Below, one piece after another: positions 15,400-43,413 of a stretch of 64,000 nucleotides of DNA. The position numbers were made by a program, and so were the translations under genes. This DNA comes from an uncultured Bacilli bacterium (lineage in GTDB: Bacteria; Bacillota_I; Bacilli_A; RF39; UBA660): positions 70,176 to 134,175 of the forward strand of contig CALVVF010000001.1 in the NCBI GenBank assembly GCA_944363785.1. The letters run 5' to 3'. Positions within the stretch are counted from its first letter, which is position 1; every line of letters starts with the position of its first letter. Under the pieces are notes generated by a model. That model saw only the letters and a list, made by a program, of their open reading frames with translations. It was not told the origin of the DNA and did no database searches.

Positions 15400-15488
15400 G
15401 TAAAATACGATATAATAGATGTTAGTGAAATTAAAAATGAATAAATAAAAAAAGGTGGTGTAAGACGAGATATACTCGGATATACAGT

Positions 15489-16595
15489 ATGAAAAAAGTA
15501 GTAATTGGAATGAGTGGGGGAGTAGATAGTAGTGTCGCAGCTATTCTTCTAAAAGAACAAGGATATGAAGTAGAAGGACTATTTATGAGAAACTGGGATT
15601 CTTCTATAAATGGAGATTTCTTAGGGAATCCGAATTTAAATGATGGTATATGTCCTCAAGAACAAGATTATAATGATGCTTTAGCTGTATGTGAAAAAAT
15701 CGGTATTCCCCTTCACAGAATCGATTTTGTGAAAGAATACTGGGATTATGTTTTTGTCTATTTCTTAGATGAGTTAAAAAAAGGACGTACACCTAATCCA
15801 GATATTATGTGTAATAAGTATATTAAATTTGATTATTTTATTCGTGAAGCTAAACGATTAGGAGCAGACTATATCGCAACCGGTCATTATGCTAGAATTA
15901 AGGATGGACAACTACTTAGAGCCGTCGATACAAACAAGGATCAAACGTACTTTTTATCACAACTTAATCAAGAACAGTTAAGTAAAGTACTTTTCCCAAT
16001 AGGAGAACTAACGAAACCAGAAGTAAGAAAGATCGCTGAAAAATATGGGTTAATTACAGCCAAAAAGAAAGACTCTACAGGAATTTGTTTCATCGGTGAA
16101 AGAAACTTTAAAAACTTCTTAAAAAATTACTTGCCTAATCAGCCAGGTAAAATTGTCAATATCGAAACTAACGAAGTTGTAGGAGATCACATTGGTTTGA
16201 TGTATTATACGATAGGGCAGAGAAGGGGACTTGAAGTAGGGGGAACCGAAGAAAGATTATTTGTAGTAGGGAAAAATTTACAAGAGAATATTTTATATGT
16301 TGCCTTAGGTGAAGATAATCCATATTTATATTCAAATAGTTGTATTATCGATACAGTTAACTTTAATACCAATGAACGTCCAACTAAGTGCAGTGCTAAA
16401 TTCCGTTATCGTGCACCTGATCATCCGGTTACATTAGAATATTTAGATAATGGAGAAATAAAAGTAAAATACGATGCCGTTAAATCCGTCACACCAGGAC
16501 AAGCTTGTGTCGTTTATGATAACGAGAAATGTATCGGTGGCGGTATCGTAAAAACAGTATGTAAAGACGATGAAAAACTTTGGTATATATTGTAA
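15489..16595 (+). CDS. mnmA: tRNA-specific 2-thiouridylase MnmA
   Basis: PP-loop SGGVDSS at the N-terminus, catalytic Cys region and 368 aa length. Confidence 0.9.
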
Positions 16596-36051: not shown

Positions 36052-36528
36052 CTAACTAGTAATCATTCCGATATAATAATTATCAATATTTTGAATAATC
36101 TTTTTCATAATTAATTCTTCTTTTTTTTGAATATAAGGGAAAAAAGAAGTATATATTTCAGTTGAACATAAGTGAAATACCTGTTTAGTATAAAAAAGCT
36201 TAGTCGCTTGTAAATAAAGTTTATTGTCTAATACCGTGAAAAGAAAATCGTCTAGACGAACGATATTTCTAATTTCACGTAAATGATAGTATTTATCTTT
36301 AGTATAATCAAGAACTTCGTCGACAACTTGTAAGCGAGAGTATGCTTTTTGGTATTTTGAACCATTAAATGGAGAATTATCTTCTAGAAAACAAGCTATT
36401 TTCTCATAATCTTTCGTAACGAGAATATTCTCTAATTCTTCTCTTTTATGCTTTTTCCTCTTAATTAAATCATAACACAAAAGGCTATTTTGATAGATTT
36501 GATTAAAAGCTGTTTTCTTTGAAATCAT
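36052..36528 (-). CDS. Hypothetical protein between parE and parC (158 aa)
   Basis: ORF in the same orientation, 10-17 nt gaps on both sides. Confidence 0.4.
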   Translation of the reverse strand: MISKKTAFNQIYQNSLLCYDLIKRKKHKREELENILVTKDYEKIACFLEDNSPFNGSKYQKAYSRLQVVDEVLDYTKDKYYHLREIRNIVRLDDFLFTVLDNKLYLQATKLFYTKQVFHLCSTEIYTSFFPYIQKKEELIMKKIIQNIDNYYIGMITS

Positions 36529-36545: not shown

Positions 36546-38456
36546 CTACTTTTTGGTAATTGTGTAGTCATCTTCTAATGAAAATTCGACGTTTTCTTCG
36601 ATCCAATCTTTTCTTGGTTCGACATTATCTCCCATTAAAACACTAACTCTTTTTTCGGCTAAAATAGCATCTTCGATCGTTACTCGGATCAAACTTCTTG
36701 TCTTTGGATTCATCGTTGTTTCGGCTAATTGATCCGCATTCATTTCACCTAATCCTTTGTAACGCTGGACTTCGCATTTTTTACCTGCTGTTTTTTCTTT
36801 CATTTCTTCCATGGTATACGCATACTGATGATCTTTACCATTTTTGATCAAGAATAATGGCGGAAGGGCAATATAAAGACGCCCTGCTTCGATTAATGGT
36901 TTCATATAACGATAGAAGAAAGTAAGTAATAAACATTGAATATGAGCACCATCGTCATCCGCATCGGTCATGATAATGACTTTGGCATATTCTGCTTCAT
37001 CAATATCGAAATTAGGAGCAACTCCCGCACCAATCGTATAAATCATCGTATTGATTTCTTCATTTTTTAAAATGTCTTCCATTTTGGCTTTTTCGGTATT
37101 AATTACTTTTCCACGTAATGGTAAAATCGCTTGAAAACAGCGATCACGGCCTTGTTTAGCAGACCCACCTGCAGAATCTCCCTCAACTAAGAAAAGTTCG
37201 TTTTTTGTCTTATCTCGTCCCTGAGCAGGAGAAAGTTTACCAGATAGGGCTCTTTCTTTAGGATTTTTAGTTTTTCCTTTACGTGCTTCTTCTCTTGCTT
37301 TACGAGCAGCTTCACGAGCAATTTTACTACGAAGTGACTTTTCGATAATATCCGTAGCGATCTTTTTATTTTCTTCTAAAAAGAACTGTAACTTTTCACT
37401 AACTAAGCTTTCTACTGCGGTTCTTGCTTGCGGAGTACCTAATTTTCCCTTTGTTTGCCCTTCAAATTGAAGTAGAGCTTCAGGTATTTTTAAAGAGATA
37501 ATCGCAGTTAATCCTTCTCGAACGTCACTACCTTCTAAAGCTTTATCTTTTCCTTTGATATAACCATTATTTTTGGCATAGTCGTTAAAAGCACGAGTAA
37601 GTGCCGTCTTAAATCCAACTTCATGACTACCACCATCTACGGTCTTTACATTATTAACGAAAGAAACGATATTTTCATTGTAAGTATCTGTATACTGCAT
37701 CGCAATATCAATTTCCATTTTATCTTTTGTTCCTTCAAAAGAAATCACGTTGTGCAAAACATTTTTTCCTTCATTTAAATAACGAACAAAAGCGATCAAT
37801 CCATCATCGTAATGATATTTTTCACACCGTCCATCTTCTTCATTAACTACTTCGATAGTAAGTCCTTTAATTAAGAAAGCAGACTCTTGCATCCGTTCAC
37901 AAATCGTCGTAAAAGAAAAATGAACATTCTGAAAAATCTCATCATCAGGAAGAAATCTTACTGTAGTACCTGTTCTAGCACTCATTCCAATTTGCTTTAA
38001 AGGAGTAACTTTTTTCCCTCCATCTTCAAAGCGAATAAACCACTCGTGCTTATCGTTTTTGATCGTTACTTCCATCCATTTAGACAAAGCATTAACGACA
38101 CTGGCACCGACACCATGCAAACCACCAGATACTTTGTAGCCACCTTCTTCAAATTTACCACCAGCATGTAAAACCGTATAGATAACTTCCGGTGCACTTT
38201 TTCCTGATGAGTGCATTCCCGTTGGAACTCCACGTCCATGATCTTCTACACTGATACTTTTATCTTTATGCAAAGTGATCTTGATATAATCTCCGTATCC
38301 GTTAATTGCTTCATCGATCGCATTATCAACAATTTCCCACACTAAATGATGAAGACCCCGTTTATCGGTAGAACCAATATACATACCAGGTCTTTTTCTC
38401 ACTGCCTCTAGTCCTTCTAATATTTTAATGGAATCTGCATCGTATTTTGCTGCCAT
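36546..38456 (-). CDS. parE: Type IIA topoisomerase B subunit, probably topoisomerase IV ParE
   Basis: GHKL ATPase and TOPRIM motifs (EGDSAGGSAKQGRDR). AAGGAGAG RBS precedes ATG 38456. The track start 38573 adds an implausible hydrophobic leader. Confidence 0.6.
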   Translation of the reverse strand: MAAKYDADSIKILEGLEAVRKRPGMYIGSTDKRGLHHLVWEIVDNAIDEAINGYGDYIKITLHKDKSISVEDHGRGVPTGMHSSGKSAPEVIYTVLHAGGKFEEGGYKVSGGLHGVGASVVNALSKWMEVTIKNDKHEWFIRFEDGGKKVTPLKQIGMSARTGTTVRFLPDDEIFQNVHFSFTTICERMQESAFLIKGLTIEVVNEEDGRCEKYHYDDGLIAFVRYLNEGKNVLHNVISFEGTKDKMEIDIAMQYTDTYNENIVSFVNNVKTVDGGSHEVGFKTALTRAFNDYAKNNGYIKGKDKALEGSDVREGLTAIISLKIPEALLQFEGQTKGKLGTPQARTAVESLVSEKLQFFLEENKKIATDIIEKSLRSKIAREAARKAREEARKGKTKNPKERALSGKLSPAQGRDKTKNELFLVEGDSAGGSAKQGRDRCFQAILPLRGKVINTEKAKMEDILKNEEINTMIYTIGAGVAPNFDIDEAEYAKVIIMTDADDDGAHIQCLLLTFFYRYMKPLIEAGRLYIALPPLFLIKNGKDHQYAYTMEEMKEKTAGKKCEVQRYKGLGEMNADQLAETTMNPKTRSLIRVTIEDAILAEKRVSVLMGDNVEPRKDWIEENVEFSLEDDYTITKK

Positions 38457-38666
38457 AGTTTCACTCTCCTTCCCCATTATAGCAAACTTCAAAACAAAAA
38501 AAAAGAAGCATGACACTATTTGACAGTGAAACTTTACTCTTCTTTTTACATTTATTATCAATTTTTTAGTCAAAACAAATGTTTATCCATTAAATTTTCT
38601 TTTTTGTCAACAAATATCTTCTTCTTTTTCAAATTTTTTCTATAATCACTCTATAAAACCACATTC

Positions 38667-38924
38667 CTACAAAGCACTTAACGTCTTTGGCCCAATACAA
38701 CCATCAATTTCAGCATCGTATTTTCCCCCACTTTTGGCATGCTTTTGAAATTCTGTTGTCCAGTTTTTTAAATAACCATCTCTACTAATCGATGAATTAA
38801 TTTTTTTTGTTTTAAATGCTTTTAAATAACCAGTAAGTACATCAGTAAATATAAATATTCCACACAATATAAATAATAGTTTTGGCTCATTCATAGCCAT
38901 AACATGTTTTATAAATTCTTCCAT
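38667..38924 (-). CDS. Chimeric small protein: holin-like TM segment fused to a PG_binding_1-like tail (85 aa)
   Basis: FILCGIFIFTDVLTGYLKAFKTKKINSSISRDGYLK resembles the TM1 region of the phage holin 4_1 family. The C-terminus GKYDAEIDGCIGPKTLSAL resembles the GxIDGxFGPxT peptidoglycan-binding repeat. Confidence 0.4.
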   Translation of the reverse strand: MEEFIKHVMAMNEPKLLFILCGIFIFTDVLTGYLKAFKTKKINSSISRDGYLKNWTTEFQKHAKSGGKYDAEIDGCIGPKTLSAL

Positions 38925-39112: not shown

Positions 39113-39559
39113 CTATAAAATATTTTCTATTATGTATACAAGTTTTTCCCCTTCCATATATATTAGGTATAATGCTGAAAAATCATTTTTAGTTTTGACA
39201 TAATACTTATATTGTTTGTCAAAGTCAATTCTATTTATTGATTCAACCCCAATTCTATCTAACAACTCATTTATTTTATTTTCCAATCCAATATTTTTAT
39301 CGATTTCCCAAGTCATATCATTTAACTTTTTAATGCTTCTTGAAGAATTATACTTGACAATTGTATAAGAAATACCGTCGCCAATCAAACCAACCTTTGT
39401 CCTTTCATAATGTAAAATTTTAGTAGTGTATGGCAACTTAACATCCCAGTTTATATGTACCCCTACAATTGAATTCACAAATTTAGCATATAAGATGATT
39501 ATAATGAATAATATAAGTAAAATAAGCAAAACTTTCTTTATTTTTTTCTTCATATTCAT
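39113..39559 (-). CDS. RHS-toxin immunity-like protein (paralog of 40337..40816), 148 aa
   Basis: Internal start MNMKKKIKKVLLILLILF gives a signal/TM. Same architecture as the 40337..40816 product (INWHIYLPG vs HINWDVKLPY). Confidence 0.5.
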   Translation of the reverse strand: MNMKKKIKKVLLILLILFIIIILYAKFVNSIVGVHINWDVKLPYTTKILHYERTKVGLIGDGISYTIVKYNSSRSIKKLNDMTWEIDKNIGLENKINELLDRIGVESINRIDFDKQYKYYVKTKNDFSALYLIYMEGEKLVYIIENIL

Positions 39560-39880
39560 AGTCCCCACTATCTTTATCTTTGACAGATACTTTTGAAAAA
39601 TCTCCCTATACAAAATTATAGCATATACTAGATGAGTTAATATATCGAATAGTAGCGATTGTAATCTTGTTACTTTAATCAATTTTAATGTTCTAATGCC
39701 GTCCACATTGTATTGATAGCTAACAAATAAGTTCTTTACAGTATTACCATAACTATTTAAATTTCTGCCATTTATCCAGCTCATTTGAATATTATTTCCA
39801 ATTGTCAATAGATTACCGACAACATCATAGGTAATACTATTCCCATTAAAACTTACAAGTTGAATGTTAAAATTATTTTA
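39560..39880 (-). pseudogene. Orphan RHS/YD-repeat remnant (5-prime homology box) fused in-frame to the immunity-like gene
   Basis: The first ~46 codons (…ITYDVVGNLLTIGNNIQMSWINGRNLNSYGNTVKNLFVSYQYNVDGIRTLKL) are near-identical to 41641-41733. About 70 nt is identical at DNA level. No RHS core or toxin follows. Confidence 0.55.
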
Positions 39881-40199
39881 ATGCTCCATCTTTAGAATAA
39901 TATTTATTTAAAATTAATATTACTGTTTTAAGCATGTTTAAATAAATTTCCATATTTATTCCATTATCATTTTCTTTATTTTCGGAAATAAAATTCAATA
40001 TTTTTCTTTCTACTTTCGCATCTAAATCATATACTTCATTCGTTAGTCTTCTAGAATTATGTATAAATTGATAGCATAATCCATTATAGTAATCAAAGCA
40101 CATATCAAGCTGTAAATCATGTGTACCTACAGGATACTTAATTTCTACAAAAAATTTAATAAATTCCATTTCTAATTTTTTCATATAATTTTTTCGCAT
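39873..40199 (-). CDS. Hypothetical small cytoplasmic protein, possible orphan immunity protein (108 aa)
   Basis: Lies between the two RHS cassettes. No signal peptide. Confidence 0.35.
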   Translation of the reverse strand: MRKNYMKKLEMEFIKFFVEIKYPVGTHDLQLDMCFDYYNGLCYQFIHNSRRLTNEVYDLDAKVERKILNFISENKENDNGINMEIYLNMLKTVILILNKYYSKDGALK

Positions 40200-40336
40200 T
40201 CCTTTCTAGAATATTATTGCATAAGCAATATCATAAAATATCTACGGTATCTATTTAGATTAACAATACAAATATTGGTAGAATTCATAATCGCATTACA
40301 CTGTAAACTAGCTTTATTTTTATAATATTTACGAAT

Positions 40337-40816
40337 TTAATGAATAGCAGTAAAAGAATAAATTTTTTTATTTTCCATATCTAATATTAAGATAAGATAG
40401 GATTTGTTCTGATTTTTCTTTTTCATTAAATAATAGTTGTTGGTATTCAAAAGTTGCTTAACATCGATATTCTTATCATATGCCTCTTTTCCATCAATTC
40501 CTTTAAATTTTCCTAAGCCATTATAAAAATTCAGCAGATCATCTTGAATAGTACTCATATTTTCAAAAGAAATTGCTTCAAAATTATTTACCTCTTTTAT
40601 TTTTTTTAGAAAATGTGAGTCAGAGATTGTTAAAATCGATATGGTATCCCCATCTCTAAAAGAAGTATCATAGATAACTTTTTCTTCTTTCACACCGGGT
40701 AAATAGATATGCCAATTGATAAGAGCTTCGATTTGACAACCTTTTAATGTAAAAAAACAAAATCCCAAAAATATGGAAATTAGTATTATGATTACTATTA
40801 TAATTTGTCTTTTCAT
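40337..40816 (-). CDS. Immunity-like protein downstream of RHS toxin tip (159 aa)
   Basis: Signal/TM MKRQIIIVIIILISIFLGFCFF. Starts 30 nt downstream of the RHS C-terminal fragment. Paralogous to 39113..39559. Confidence 0.5.
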   Translation of the reverse strand: MKRQIIIVIIILISIFLGFCFFTLKGCQIEALINWHIYLPGVKEEKVIYDTSFRDGDTISILTISDSHFLKKIKEVNNFEAISFENMSTIQDDLLNFYNGLGKFKGIDGKEAYDKNIDVKQLLNTNNYYLMKKKNQNKSYLILILDMENKKIYSFTAIH

Positions 40817-40845
40817 GAGAAAAAAATCCTTTCAAACTTATCTTA

Positions 40846-41733
40846 TCAGTTTTCCGTATAAATCATATCGTAATTAACGTCCCAATCATATGGGATAAGT
40901 AAACCAGTATGTTGCATCACAAAGCCAAGATCATTGGCAAGTGCTCCCACGGTAAGACTAGTTCTAAATTCAGTAAAATCATATGTATCATATAGATTAA
41001 CATTTTTTACTGTTACAGCAGCCACTAAAGTTACAAACAAAGTAGTAAAAAAGCCCTTTCCAGTAGGATCAATATTCATTACTGAATTATTCCCAGAATA
41101 GATATATATATTATTTGATAATATGTTTTTATCTGCGCAAATAGTACCGTCGGCATTGATAAGTCTACCCCATTCAGGATTATAGTATCTACTGTTTAAA
41201 TAATATAGTTCTGTTTCAGTGTCATAGTAGTATCCACGATATCTAAATGGATTAATAATACCAATATTAGTAGTATCTGTAATTTCATTACCTTGATTAT
41301 CTTTGATACTTAATACTTTACCCCAACTATCATATTCATAAAACACTACTTGATTGTAAGTTGAGTCTAATACTCCTATAATATCTTCTTTTAGATTTTT
41401 AATGTAATAGTAAGTATTATCATTGTATTTTAATCCTAAAAGGCCTATTCCATCATACAAATAATGAATGATATCATTTCCTCTTTGTTCAAAGATAATG
41501 TTACTGTTTTCTAAATAATACTTAGTTTCTACTCCATTTACTAACTTTAATGTTCTAATACCATCCGCATTGTATTGATAACTAATAAATAAGTTCTTTG
41601 CAGTATTCTCATAACCACTTAAACTTCTGCCGTTTATCCAACTCATTTGAATATTATTTCCAATTGTCAATGGATTACCGACAACATCATAGGTAATACT
41701 ACTTCCATTAAAGCTCGTTAGTTGGTCTTCTCA
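40846..41733 (-). CDS. RHS/YD-repeat protein C-terminal fragment: last YD repeats, RHS-associated core, C-terminal toxin tip
   Basis: YD repeats (ITYDVVGN, YQYNADGIRTLK), core motif NPFRYRGYYYDTETELYYLNSRYYNPEWGRLINAD then DPTGKG, then a ~65-aa variable hydrophobic tail. The frame is open only back to TGA 41731-41733. The track start is a TTG at 41670. No N-terminal body. Confidence 0.7.
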
Positions 41734-42018
41734 ATTACTATTAGAATACTGATAAGTATCTGTCTTTATTATAACATTGGTTGTCCTATTTGTAGTAGTT
41801 TTTGTTAATAAATTACCTCTTTATTCTTTTAAAACATATTACTTATACAAATATTAGTTGTTTCTGTAAAAAATAATGAGTAGTGATAATTATCCTATCA
41901 TTTACTACTCATTAGACAATATTATAATATTTTTGATTAAGTTTGTTATCTTTTTTGCATGTCAAACTAATTTTGATTCATCGCTATTTTCTCTCCAGCC
42001 GTGCTCTGCCTGTTCTAT

Positions 42019-43413
42019 TTATTTCTTAATTTCTTGAATAAATCTTTCAATTAGTTCTAAGAAAGTTGTTTTTAATTTATCTCTTACTTCTTCTGTAGTA
42101 CCCTCAAATCTAGCTGTAATATTAGGTCCGGTATTACTTACTCTAATTAAAGCCCAACCATCATCGAGTTCAATTCTAACACCGTCGATATCGATGATTT
42201 TATATCCCGCTGCTTCACAGTACTCTTTAACTTTCACAACAACTTTATTTTTAATTTTATCACTTACTGCGATCTTAATTTCAGGAGTGGAATAATACTC
42301 AGGAATTCCTGCTAAACATTCACTGACACTGCGATTAGAATTCGTCAAAATTTCGATTAAACGAAGTCCAGCATAAAGTCCAGAATCAAATCCTAAAAAG
42401 CGATCTCTAAAGAATAGATGTCCACTAAACTCGCCACCAAAAACACAATCTTTTTCTTTAGTAGCAGCTTTAGTATAAGAGTTTCCTGTACGATTGATAA
42501 TAGCTTCTCCACCTAACCGTTCAATCTCTTCTGGTAAAGCTTTAGAACATTTTACATCATATAAGACTCTCTTATTTGCTGATTTTGGTAAGATATCTCT
42601 TACATAAAGAATCATCAACTTATCACTAGGAATATAATTTCCTTTTTCATCGACAACTCCAATCCTGTCCCCATCTCCATCAAAAGCAATACCAACATCT
42701 GCTTTCATTTCAACAACAGCATCTTTTAATACTTTTAAATTATCCTCTACACATGGATCAGGATGATGATTAGGGAAATTTGGATCACTTTTACCGTAAA
42801 GAACAATTAAATCAACACCCACTAAATTATATAATTCAGGAGCAAAAAAGGAAGTTGTTCCATTACCACAATCAATAATTACCCGTTTACGATTTTTAGT
42901 ATTAATCTTTACTGATTGTAATAATAAATGATAATAATCATCACGAATATTAAAAAAAGTAATAATTCCGTGACCCTGATCAAATTCTCCTTTTTTTAAG
43001 AAATGATAAAAGTCTTCAATCATTTTCCCTTTAGCATTCCCTCTCTCATCAAAAGAAAATTTAAATCCATTATCATCCTTAGGATTATGACTAGCCGTTA
43101 CCATTACCCCTGCCGGTATATTTAGTCGTAGACAAGCATAATAATACATCGGTGTCGTCACTAACCCTAAGTTTAAAACATGAACACCAGTCTCTACAAT
43201 ACCTTGAATTAAGGCATTTTGAATTTCTTTCGAAGAGTAACGATTATCATGTCCAACTACACATTGAGTTTGACCCAATTTTTTAATATATGTTCCATAA
43301 GCTTTCCCAAAGGTATAACTGACATCTTCATTAATATCTTTGGGATATACTCCTCGTACATCATAAGCACGAAAAATATCTTTATTAATTTCTTCTGTTA
43401 ATTTCATTGTCAC
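42019..43413 (-). CDS. Phosphoglucomutase/phosphomannomutase (alpha-D-phosphohexomutase family)
   Basis: Active-site TASHNPKDDNGFK, metal-binding DGDGDR, 464 aa. Confidence 0.85.
   Translation of the reverse strand: MTMKLTEEINKDIFRAYDVRGVYPKDINEDVSYTFGKAYGTYIKKLGQTQCVVGHDNRYSSKEIQNALIQGIVETGVHVLNLGLVTTPMYYYACLRLNIPAGVMVTASHNPKDDNGFKFSFDERGNAKGKMIEDFYHFLKKGEFDQGHGIITFFNIRDDYYHLLLQSVKINTKNRKRVIIDCGNGTTSFFAPELYNLVGVDLIVLYGKSDPNFPNHHPDPCVEDNLKVLKDAVVEMKADVGIAFDGDGDRIGVVDEKGNYIPSDKLMILYVRDILPKSANKRVLYDVKCSKALPEEIERLGGEAIINRTGNSYTKAATKEKDCVFGGEFSGHLFFRDRFLGFDSGLYAGLRLIEILTNSNRSVSECLAGIPEYYSTPEIKIAVSDKIKNKVVVKVKEYCEAAGYKIIDIDGVRIELDDGWALIRVSNTGPNITARFEGTTEEVRDKLKTTFLELIERFIQEIKK

Follow-up and report, generated by a model that had tools for sequence, protein, structure and literature searches.

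A short array of rhs-derived genes, found in a 64-kb window of one contig from an uncultured low-GC gut Bacilli lineage, is probably the eroded remnant of the orphan-cassette array of an Rhs polymorphic-toxin island. It lies on the minus strand, inserted between glmM (42019..43413) and parE (36546..38573), in a genome of ∼31% G+C. The offensive parts of the array are all broken: the first cassette has a nonsense codon in its rhs arm and a deletion in its toxin, the second retains neither core nor toxin, and a deletion has fused the holin gene to the hydrolase gene. The locus survives, if at all, as orphan immunity. Only the tail of the island's orphan-cassette array is left. We propose that the locus would no longer make or donate a toxin and that the rhs pieces would be decaying passengers. 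Any leftover function is most likely immunity, with two proteins whose predicted ectodomains would sit outside the membrane and neutralize the corresponding Rhs toxins delivered by neighboring Bacilli. The array is a known kind of relic and embodies no new principle. Its features are listed below.

40846..41817, minus strand: orphan rhs C-terminal (rhs-CT) cassette 1, comprising a homology arm, the last YD repeats, the Rhs core, and a deleted toxin remnant
41731..41733, minus strand: in-frame TGA replacing a conserved Trp codon (TGG), a nonsense mutation in the rhs arm recognized by sequence comparison
41053..41334, minus strand: RHS-associated core domain (TIGR03696), closing with a DPTGKG cleavage-type motif (41070-41053)
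40849..41052, minus strand: 68-amino acid (aa) toxin remnant, holding of a ∼175-aa toxin domain only the first hydrophobic helix and the last ∼50 residues, which meet at ∼41005/41004
40337..40816, minus strand: imm1, a 159-aa membrane-anchored immunity-family protein with a predicted N-in transmembrane helix and extracytoplasmic α/β domain, intact in the window
39873..40184 (alternative start 40199), minus strand: orf108/103, a small cytoplasmic protein of 103-108 aa, from the open reading frame (ORF) list and sister-lineage conservation
39681..39862, minus strand: cassette 2 scar, a 182-nt piece of rhs arm cut at both ends, from a repeat search and tblastn
39560..39680, minus strand: junction and imm2 upstream region, open in the rhs frame and yielding a 231-aa mechanical "fusion" ORF (39808..39113)
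39113..39559, minus strand: imm2, a 146-148-aa membrane-anchored distant paralog of imm1, with its own start at ATG 39559 or 39553
38667..38924, minus strand: 85-aa holin'-'lysin deletion-fusion ORF marking the 3' end of the island, from Pfam/NCBIfam, blastn, and tblastn

The array directly adjoins its upstream neighbor, glmM, together with a terminator-like hairpin, and runs from the rhs ORF through imm1, orf108, and the fusion ORF, at the end of which imm2 lies, to the 85-aa ORF. A first-pass annotation of this stretch had proposed two orphan rhs-CT/immunity cassettes in evident decay, the second of them a toxin-less ghost, with two small genes after the rhs ORF, one of them bearing a signal or transmembrane segment. 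These points are borne out by our analysis, the first of the two small genes having an N-terminal transmembrane helix; other parts of the description and of its interpretation are imprecise or unsupported, as set out below.

The frame of cassette 1 is open for 294 codons (41730..40846). The RHS core attributed to this orphan ORF by the first-pass annotation is readily recovered: over residues 133-224 of the 294-aa translation, the TIGR03696 match reaches 61.7 bits (cutoff 32.5; E=7e-17). The profile hidden Markov models for the YD repeats, proposed as part of the same check, both fall short of their cutoffs (Pfam RHS_repeat, 17.1 bits versus 22; TIGR01643, 14.9 versus 15.8). By tblastn, window 41817-41050 aligns at 78.5% identity to residues 1671-1926 of the full-length Rhs of a related locus, L001, corresponding to the last 256 pre-toxin residues of its C-terminal shell; the L001 protein itself scores E=1.7e-20 with RHS_repeat. 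Full-length Rhs genes of 2036-2094 aa are present in five such loci (L001, L002, L005, L007, and L009), and cassette 1 matches their C-terminal end. In place of a full-length β-shell body (>1400 aa) with an N-terminal delivery region, only ∼256 pre-toxin residues are found here. A full-length Rhs query identifies no further rhs pieces in the 64 kb besides 41817-41050 and 39874-39677 (tblastn), and no ORF in the window exceeds the 858 aa of ParC, so the earlier statement that no parental rhs gene lies within it stands. We regard cassette 1 as a pseudogene-like fragment of an Rhs gene of ∼2050-2090 aa.

Close relatives of cassette 1 (65-77% identity) occur only in "uncultured Bacilli" gut metagenome-assembled genomes (MAGs) in a scan of species-representative genomes. 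An origin as prophage cargo was considered and rejected, the Rhs fragment having no relatives in IMG/VR. Protein searches with the fragment return as their best 120 hits proteins of 189-512 aa, many with different C-terminal toxin Pfam domains (Tox-WTIP, Ntox44, Tox-PL-2, GIY-YIG, and others); full-length proteins of ∼2000 aa such as that of L001 do not appear among these 120. Orphan or partial ORFs may dominate the databases, or this may be a property of the index.

The TGA at which the cassette 1 frame opens had been taken to border non-coding DNA. In fact, blastn alignments with the copies in L001-L009, whether full-length or orphan, all begin at window 41817/41818, and therefore the 84 nt upstream of the TGA (41733-41731) are still rhs sequence. 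The window reads YQYSNSN-stop-EDQLTSFNG at this position, and the full-length homologs have TGG, encoding the Trp of SNSNWEDQLT. The same arm stretch is ...YQYSNSNWEDQLTNFNG in the full-length Rhs of L001 and ...ENSDWKDQLTKFNN in that of L009, and the replaced Trp sits in ...YQYSNSNWEDQLT... of full-length Rhs. The TGA is identical in strains L052-L054. Decoding of TGA as Trp (genetic code 4) was rejected because long housekeeping ORFs are intact under code 11 and because the cassette ORF itself closes with a TGA, aligned with the end of the L006 homolog. As read from the sequence, the arm (41817-41053) lacks initiation signals of its own, with no Shine-Dalgarno site before the internal ATG or TTG, and gene callers start at an ATG that encodes a Met conserved within full-length Rhs.

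The 5' edge of cassette 1 is shared with orphan copies in other species. Those in L002, L003, L005, and L006 begin within a few nt of the position corresponding to window 41817, at the codons for GNLLTKTT (window 41817; L002 15486; L003 691 and 2475; L005 13336; L006 4666 and 7005), and the DNA 5' of their edge is unrelated to full-length rhs genes. Because of this coincidence, cassette 1 appears to be an orphan cassette of the canonical type, not a main gene cut at a random point, and truncation of a main rhs gene in situ is the less likely origin. An identical terminator-like hairpin, AAGTGCTTCGGCACTTTTTC, precedes the edge in L005 and L006, with close variants in L003; AAGTGCTTCGGCACTTTTTC is not present in the window. 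The shared edge and hairpin suggest that the orphan cassette propagates as a defined unit.

What follows the core is not a complete variable toxin domain. The first-pass annotation had treated a hydrophobic tip of ∼65 aa as the toxin; the tip is 68 aa long, against ∼175 aa in the L006 homolog, and is no usable toxin tip but an internally deleted remnant that has lost ∼104 residues in frame, in a cassette whose arm carries the nonsense codon. Three copies serve as comparators: the toxin of L006 (324..950), intact although situated at the end of its contig, and two orphan copies of L009, both frameshifted. Over its final ∼50 residues the tip is 51-61% identical to the C-terminal end of the longer toxin in L006 and L009 (tblastn places L006 toxin residues 151-207 on window 41004-40852 at 54%). 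The remnant keeps the hydrophobic helix at its start and, toward its C-terminus, the motif LANDLGFxMQHTGxLxPYxWDVxY; it lacks the block SNLYLTATKxDxSxDMFNxSMY, common to the other three copies. The segment LFVTLVAAVTV, previously read as a sign of a membrane-active tip, gives no evidence of one: it is the conserved first helix of the toxin family, also present in L006 and L009, and similar hydrophobic stretches come after the DPxG motif of unrelated Rhs-CTs at other loci. The intact L006 toxin has no relatives in Pfam, NCBIfam, PHROGs, or PDB sequence searches.

The immunity genes are in a different condition. imm1 starts 30 nt past the cassette 1 stop codon, and its homologs (28%-33% identity) lie directly 3' of the homologous toxin in L006 (954..1466) and L009 (11235..11729 and 15467..15922); it is thus placed as the putative cognate immunity gene of the cassette 1 toxin family, as in an orphan module. 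Exhaustive HMMER searching assembled a family of 76 cluster representatives. An AlphaFold2 model built on the family alignment (predicted local distance difference test, 94.3) has a transmembrane helix at residues 2-23 followed by a compact α/β domain, which we infer from the basic residues preceding the helix to lie outside the cell; such a placement would fit an envelope-acting toxin. Along its whole length, imm2 aligns to the profile of the imm1 family (hhalign probability 95.4%, E=1.7e-8), with no significant pairwise BLASTP match between imm1 and imm2. Both are intact ORFs with no functional cognate toxin in cis, imm1 following a deleted toxin and imm2 a toxin-less scar, and their frames are intact in 9/9 contigs of this species.

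Between them, orf108 has no match in Pfam, NCBIfam, or PHROG and is 98% identical at the amino acid level in the sister lineage L055. A 13-nt indel at its start (40195-40183), distinguishing L053 and L054 from the window and L052, amounts to a single unit of the near-tandem repeat GAAAAAATTA(T/G)A; it removes the upstream ATGs and shifts the likely start codon downstream. The ratio of nonsynonymous to synonymous substitution rates (dN/dS) between the window and L055, a two-sequence estimate, is 0.22 for imm1, 0.20 for orf108, and 0.23 for imm2 (glmM, 0.04; parE, 0.02), which indicates purifying selection on the three small genes.

Cassette 2 is reduced to a scar. The arm recurs 1862 nt downstream of its first copy, a recurrence described previously as an identical segment of ∼70 nt; the repeat is longer and less exact, with 39681-39862 and 41543-41724 sharing 88% identity over 182 nt (19 mismatches and one gap in 180 nt), 5 of the mismatches falling inside the original 75-nt box. 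In tblastn with L001 Rhs, the scar corresponds approximately to residues 1698-1763, on window 39874-39677, with no core and no toxin. The arm piece runs stop-free through 120 nt without assigned origin into imm2. The earlier account of an arm running in frame into the second immunity gene is accurate as regards this read-through and not as regards a true fusion: imm2 has its own ATG, preceded by a GGGGA Shine-Dalgarno-like site, and stands alone in L055. For these reasons the fusion ORF called in public assemblies is probably not a functional unit. L055 shares the junction only from 39608 onward and lacks 39830-39609. A comparable toxin-less ghost is found at L001 11807..12569, where a piece of rhs arm runs into a DUF2691 immunity gene that has lost its 5' end; scars of this deletion type are therefore recurrent in the Rhs family concerned.

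Comparison across lineages shows the site in three states. The 3.6-kb region is 100% identical in L052 and differs by 5 single-nucleotide polymorphisms and one 13-nt indel in L053 and L054. In the distant relative L056 (GlmM 71% identical), glmM is followed directly by parE, an empty site. The same site in the sister lineage L055 (GlmM 91% identical) has eroded differently: the cassette 1 rhs, the toxin, and the holin scar are all missing, and a further 222-nt deletion in the cassette 2 scar leaves an arm piece of ∼30 nt with imm2 alone. L055 retains imm1 (with a 1-nt change), orf108, and imm2; genes for a membrane protein of 415 aa and for DUF2691, which is the immunity type of the L001 main Rhs, come next. 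The imm1-orf108 block (window 40857..39831 versus L055 5643..6662) is 93%-100% identical, with a dS of 0.06-0.23 as compared to 1.0-1.4 for the flanking core genes, so this block was exchanged between the lineages long after their split. Divergence is greatest in the imm2 ectodomain (61%-77% nucleotide identity).

The array ends in a second kind of scar. The first ∼53 codons of 38924..38667 derive from a PF05105/TIGR01593 holin and the final ∼35-60 codons from the neighboring cell-wall hydrolase gene, this end matching a peptidoglycan-binding fragment (Pfam/NCBIfam). By blastn, 38924-38764 (161 nt) matches the holin genes of L001 and L002, which encode 125 aa, at 91% identity, and 38775-38671 (∼100 nt) is 79% identical to the 3' end of their 290-aa hydrolase (lysin) gene. 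The two matches overlap by 12 nt, and the ORF is therefore a deletion fusion. In related islands the order is a Gp10_C-like protein, an Rhs of ∼2050-2090 aa, its immunity gene, orphan rhs-CT/immunity cassettes, a holin, and a cell-wall hydrolase. The PF05105 holin and hydrolase end the rhs islands at L001 12682..13947, L002 14109..15374, and L009 13205..14486 and 19353 onward; the hydrolase of L001 and L002 bears a weak resemblance to M23, and that of L009 has a CW_7 repeat and a weak, sub-cutoff NlpC/P60-like match. In four of the five full-length loci, a protein of 181-230 aa with a T4 Gp10 C-terminal baseplate domain (PF21939, E 1e-25 to 4e-21) is encoded directly upstream of rhs.

L001 4219..4866; L005 4297..4989; L007 4504..5049; L009 2536..3132, upstream of rhs: Gp10_C-like genes

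The fifth locus, L002, has an ORF of the same size in this position, the PF21939 scan having covered the other four. The Gp10_C-like protein looks like a conserved partner of Rhs and may be relevant to its delivery; its gene is absent from the window. Full-length Rhs (for example L001, 2087 aa) has no obvious N-terminal signal peptide by eye, and this feature, together with the holin and hydrolase, hints at holin-dependent release.

Several observations weigh against reading the locus as a relic that retains immunity. In L055 a 1-nt change, A8 to A7 (window ∼40606-40599; L055 ∼5890), breaks the imm1 frame, so immunity is not maintained everywhere; this homopolymer change could reflect real decay, phase variation, or an assembly error, and truncated imm1 variants are found in other assemblies (P0241, P0243, and P0319). 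A promoter scan (23 sites versus 30 expected) was uninformative, as was the terminator scan, and no promoter was recognized. The toxin deletion is read against one intact comparator, at the contig end in L006, and the two frameshifted L009 copies. The toxin family is also very rare in these data, with no match among 5.8 billion proteins (word-index search) or in Joint Genome Institute (JGI) metagenomes, and how often such immunity is needed therefore stays in doubt. Finally, a parental rhs gene could lie outside the 64-kb window, and recombination downstream of the TGA could transfer the cassette to it. Searches for such a gene found no arm homolog above 79% identity in the 5.8-billion-protein collection, source assemblies included, or in DNA searches; the closest (P0002 and P0003, 77%-79%) come from other samples. 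A 29-nt exact arm probe had no match in JGI metagenomes, and a scan of species-representative genome contigs contained no copy of this species, the best match being 77%.

This last point bears on the model proposed in the first-pass annotation, in which the locus is a functional silent reservoir whose intact spare tips recombine through the shared arm onto a full-length rhs gene elsewhere, switching its toxin. The canonical 5' edge of the arms, their 88% identity to each other, the low dS of the imm1-orf108 block, which points to recent exchange of cassette DNA, and the documented orphan-to-main recombination in Salmonella (PMC3967940) are all in keeping with this model. We nevertheless give it little credence: the cassette 1 toxin lacks ∼104 residues including the SNLYLTATKxDxSxDMFNxSMY block, its arm has a stop codon, cassette 2 has no toxin to give, the rhs parts are deleted in L055, and the searches for a main rhs, within the 64 kb and beyond, were negative. 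Still harder to credit is an intracellular toxin-antitoxin-like pair formed by the truncated Rhs-CT ORF (266-294 aa) and imm1, with the tip as a small membrane-active peptide. Such a pair has a precedent in Salmonella orphan Rhs (PMC7043789), and the frame does remain open for 294 codons in DNA of 73% A+T, with the toxin deletion in frame and the state of imm1 varying with that of the remnant: intact in the window, which has the remnant, and frameshifted in L055, which does not. However, this correlation comes from two lineages only, the ORF has no Shine-Dalgarno site or dedicated start (the callers' ATG being the internal Met), the hydrophobic helix is common to the intact toxin family, and the predicted extracytoplasmic ectodomain of imm1 is ill suited to a cytoplasmic antitoxin. 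We consider this pairing very improbable.

At least four independent deletions or scars within 3 kb, the imm1 frameshift in L055, the truncated variants elsewhere, and the lack of a recognized promoter invite the opposite view, that the whole locus is non-functional debris heading for deletion, immunity genes included. We think this unlikely, since a dN/dS of ∼0.2 for imm1, imm2, and orf108 speaks for purifying selection, the immunity frames are intact in all 9 contigs of the species, and imm2 is kept in both lineages despite the deletions around it. A broader proposal assigns to the related islands a lysis- or holin-dependent Rhs release route, T10SS-like (type X secretion system) or derived from a phage baseplate, in wall-bearing gut Bacilli; the window array would then be an acquired defense island with two extracytoplasmic immunity proteins directed against unnamed envelope-acting Rhs toxins. 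Although possible, this remains doubtful. Considered together, these data are most consistent with the eroded array and residual orphan immunity proposed at the outset.

The array can be set beside three kinds of known system. Enterobacteria carry orphan rhs-CT/rhsI and cdiA-CT/cdiI modules (Poole et al., 2011, PMC3150448; Koskiniemi et al., 2014, PMC3967940), and the first of these papers also describes orphan immunity that is expressed; C-terminal displacement was reportedly described by Jackson and colleagues in 2009. Like these modules, the window has a 5'-truncated rhs fragment in which part of the conserved region survives along with the core; the fragment lacks translation initiation signals and is followed by an immunity gene, with several such units in tandem, some degraded. 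In contrast to the enterobacterial modules, the array here abuts glmM with no main rhs upstream within the 64 kb, one toxin is internally deleted and the other absent, and the array ends in a holin/hydrolase scar; moreover, the host is a monoderm uncultured Bacilli rather than a proteobacterium bearing a type VI secretion system (T6SS).

Orphan immunity arrays and acquired defense islands have been described for the Vibrio cholerae T6SS (PMC5361080), Serratia Rhs (PMC10539506), and gut Bacteroidales (bioRxiv 10.1101/2025.05.03.651265). As in those systems, immunity genes persist beside effector remnants without a working cognate effector, with evidence of horizontal exchange and in a gut community setting. 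Here, however, only two or three genes are involved, no recombinase or integron-like machinery is found near the array, and the putatively protective family is uncharacterized and membrane-anchored. The Gram-positive WapA/Rhs toxins, exemplified by WapA of Bacillus subtilis and Streptococcus suis (PMC12704120), are likewise Firmicutes YD-repeat shell proteins with polymorphic C-terminal toxins and downstream immunity genes. What sets the related full-length Rhs proteins apart is that no N-terminal signal peptide is obvious in them by eye and that their genes are flanked by Gp10_C-like, holin, and hydrolase genes.

In terms of annotation, public assemblies call a 266-aa "RHS" ORF and a 223/231-aa "fusion" ORF that would be pseudogene fragments; the real genes at the locus would be the two immunity genes. 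With its empty, eroded, and further-eroded states, the site offers a three-state example of Rhs cassette gain, exchange, and erosion in gut Bacilli represented by MAGs only. It also points to an uncharacterized immunity family (76 clusters, with a confident predicted fold) paired with a rare, unnamed toxin, and to a conserved Gp10_C-Rhs-holin-hydrolase island.

Beyond the array, an ORF of 158 aa (36052..36528) lies between parE and parC. It has no Pfam match and is found at the same position in L055 (158 aa) and L056 (161 aa).

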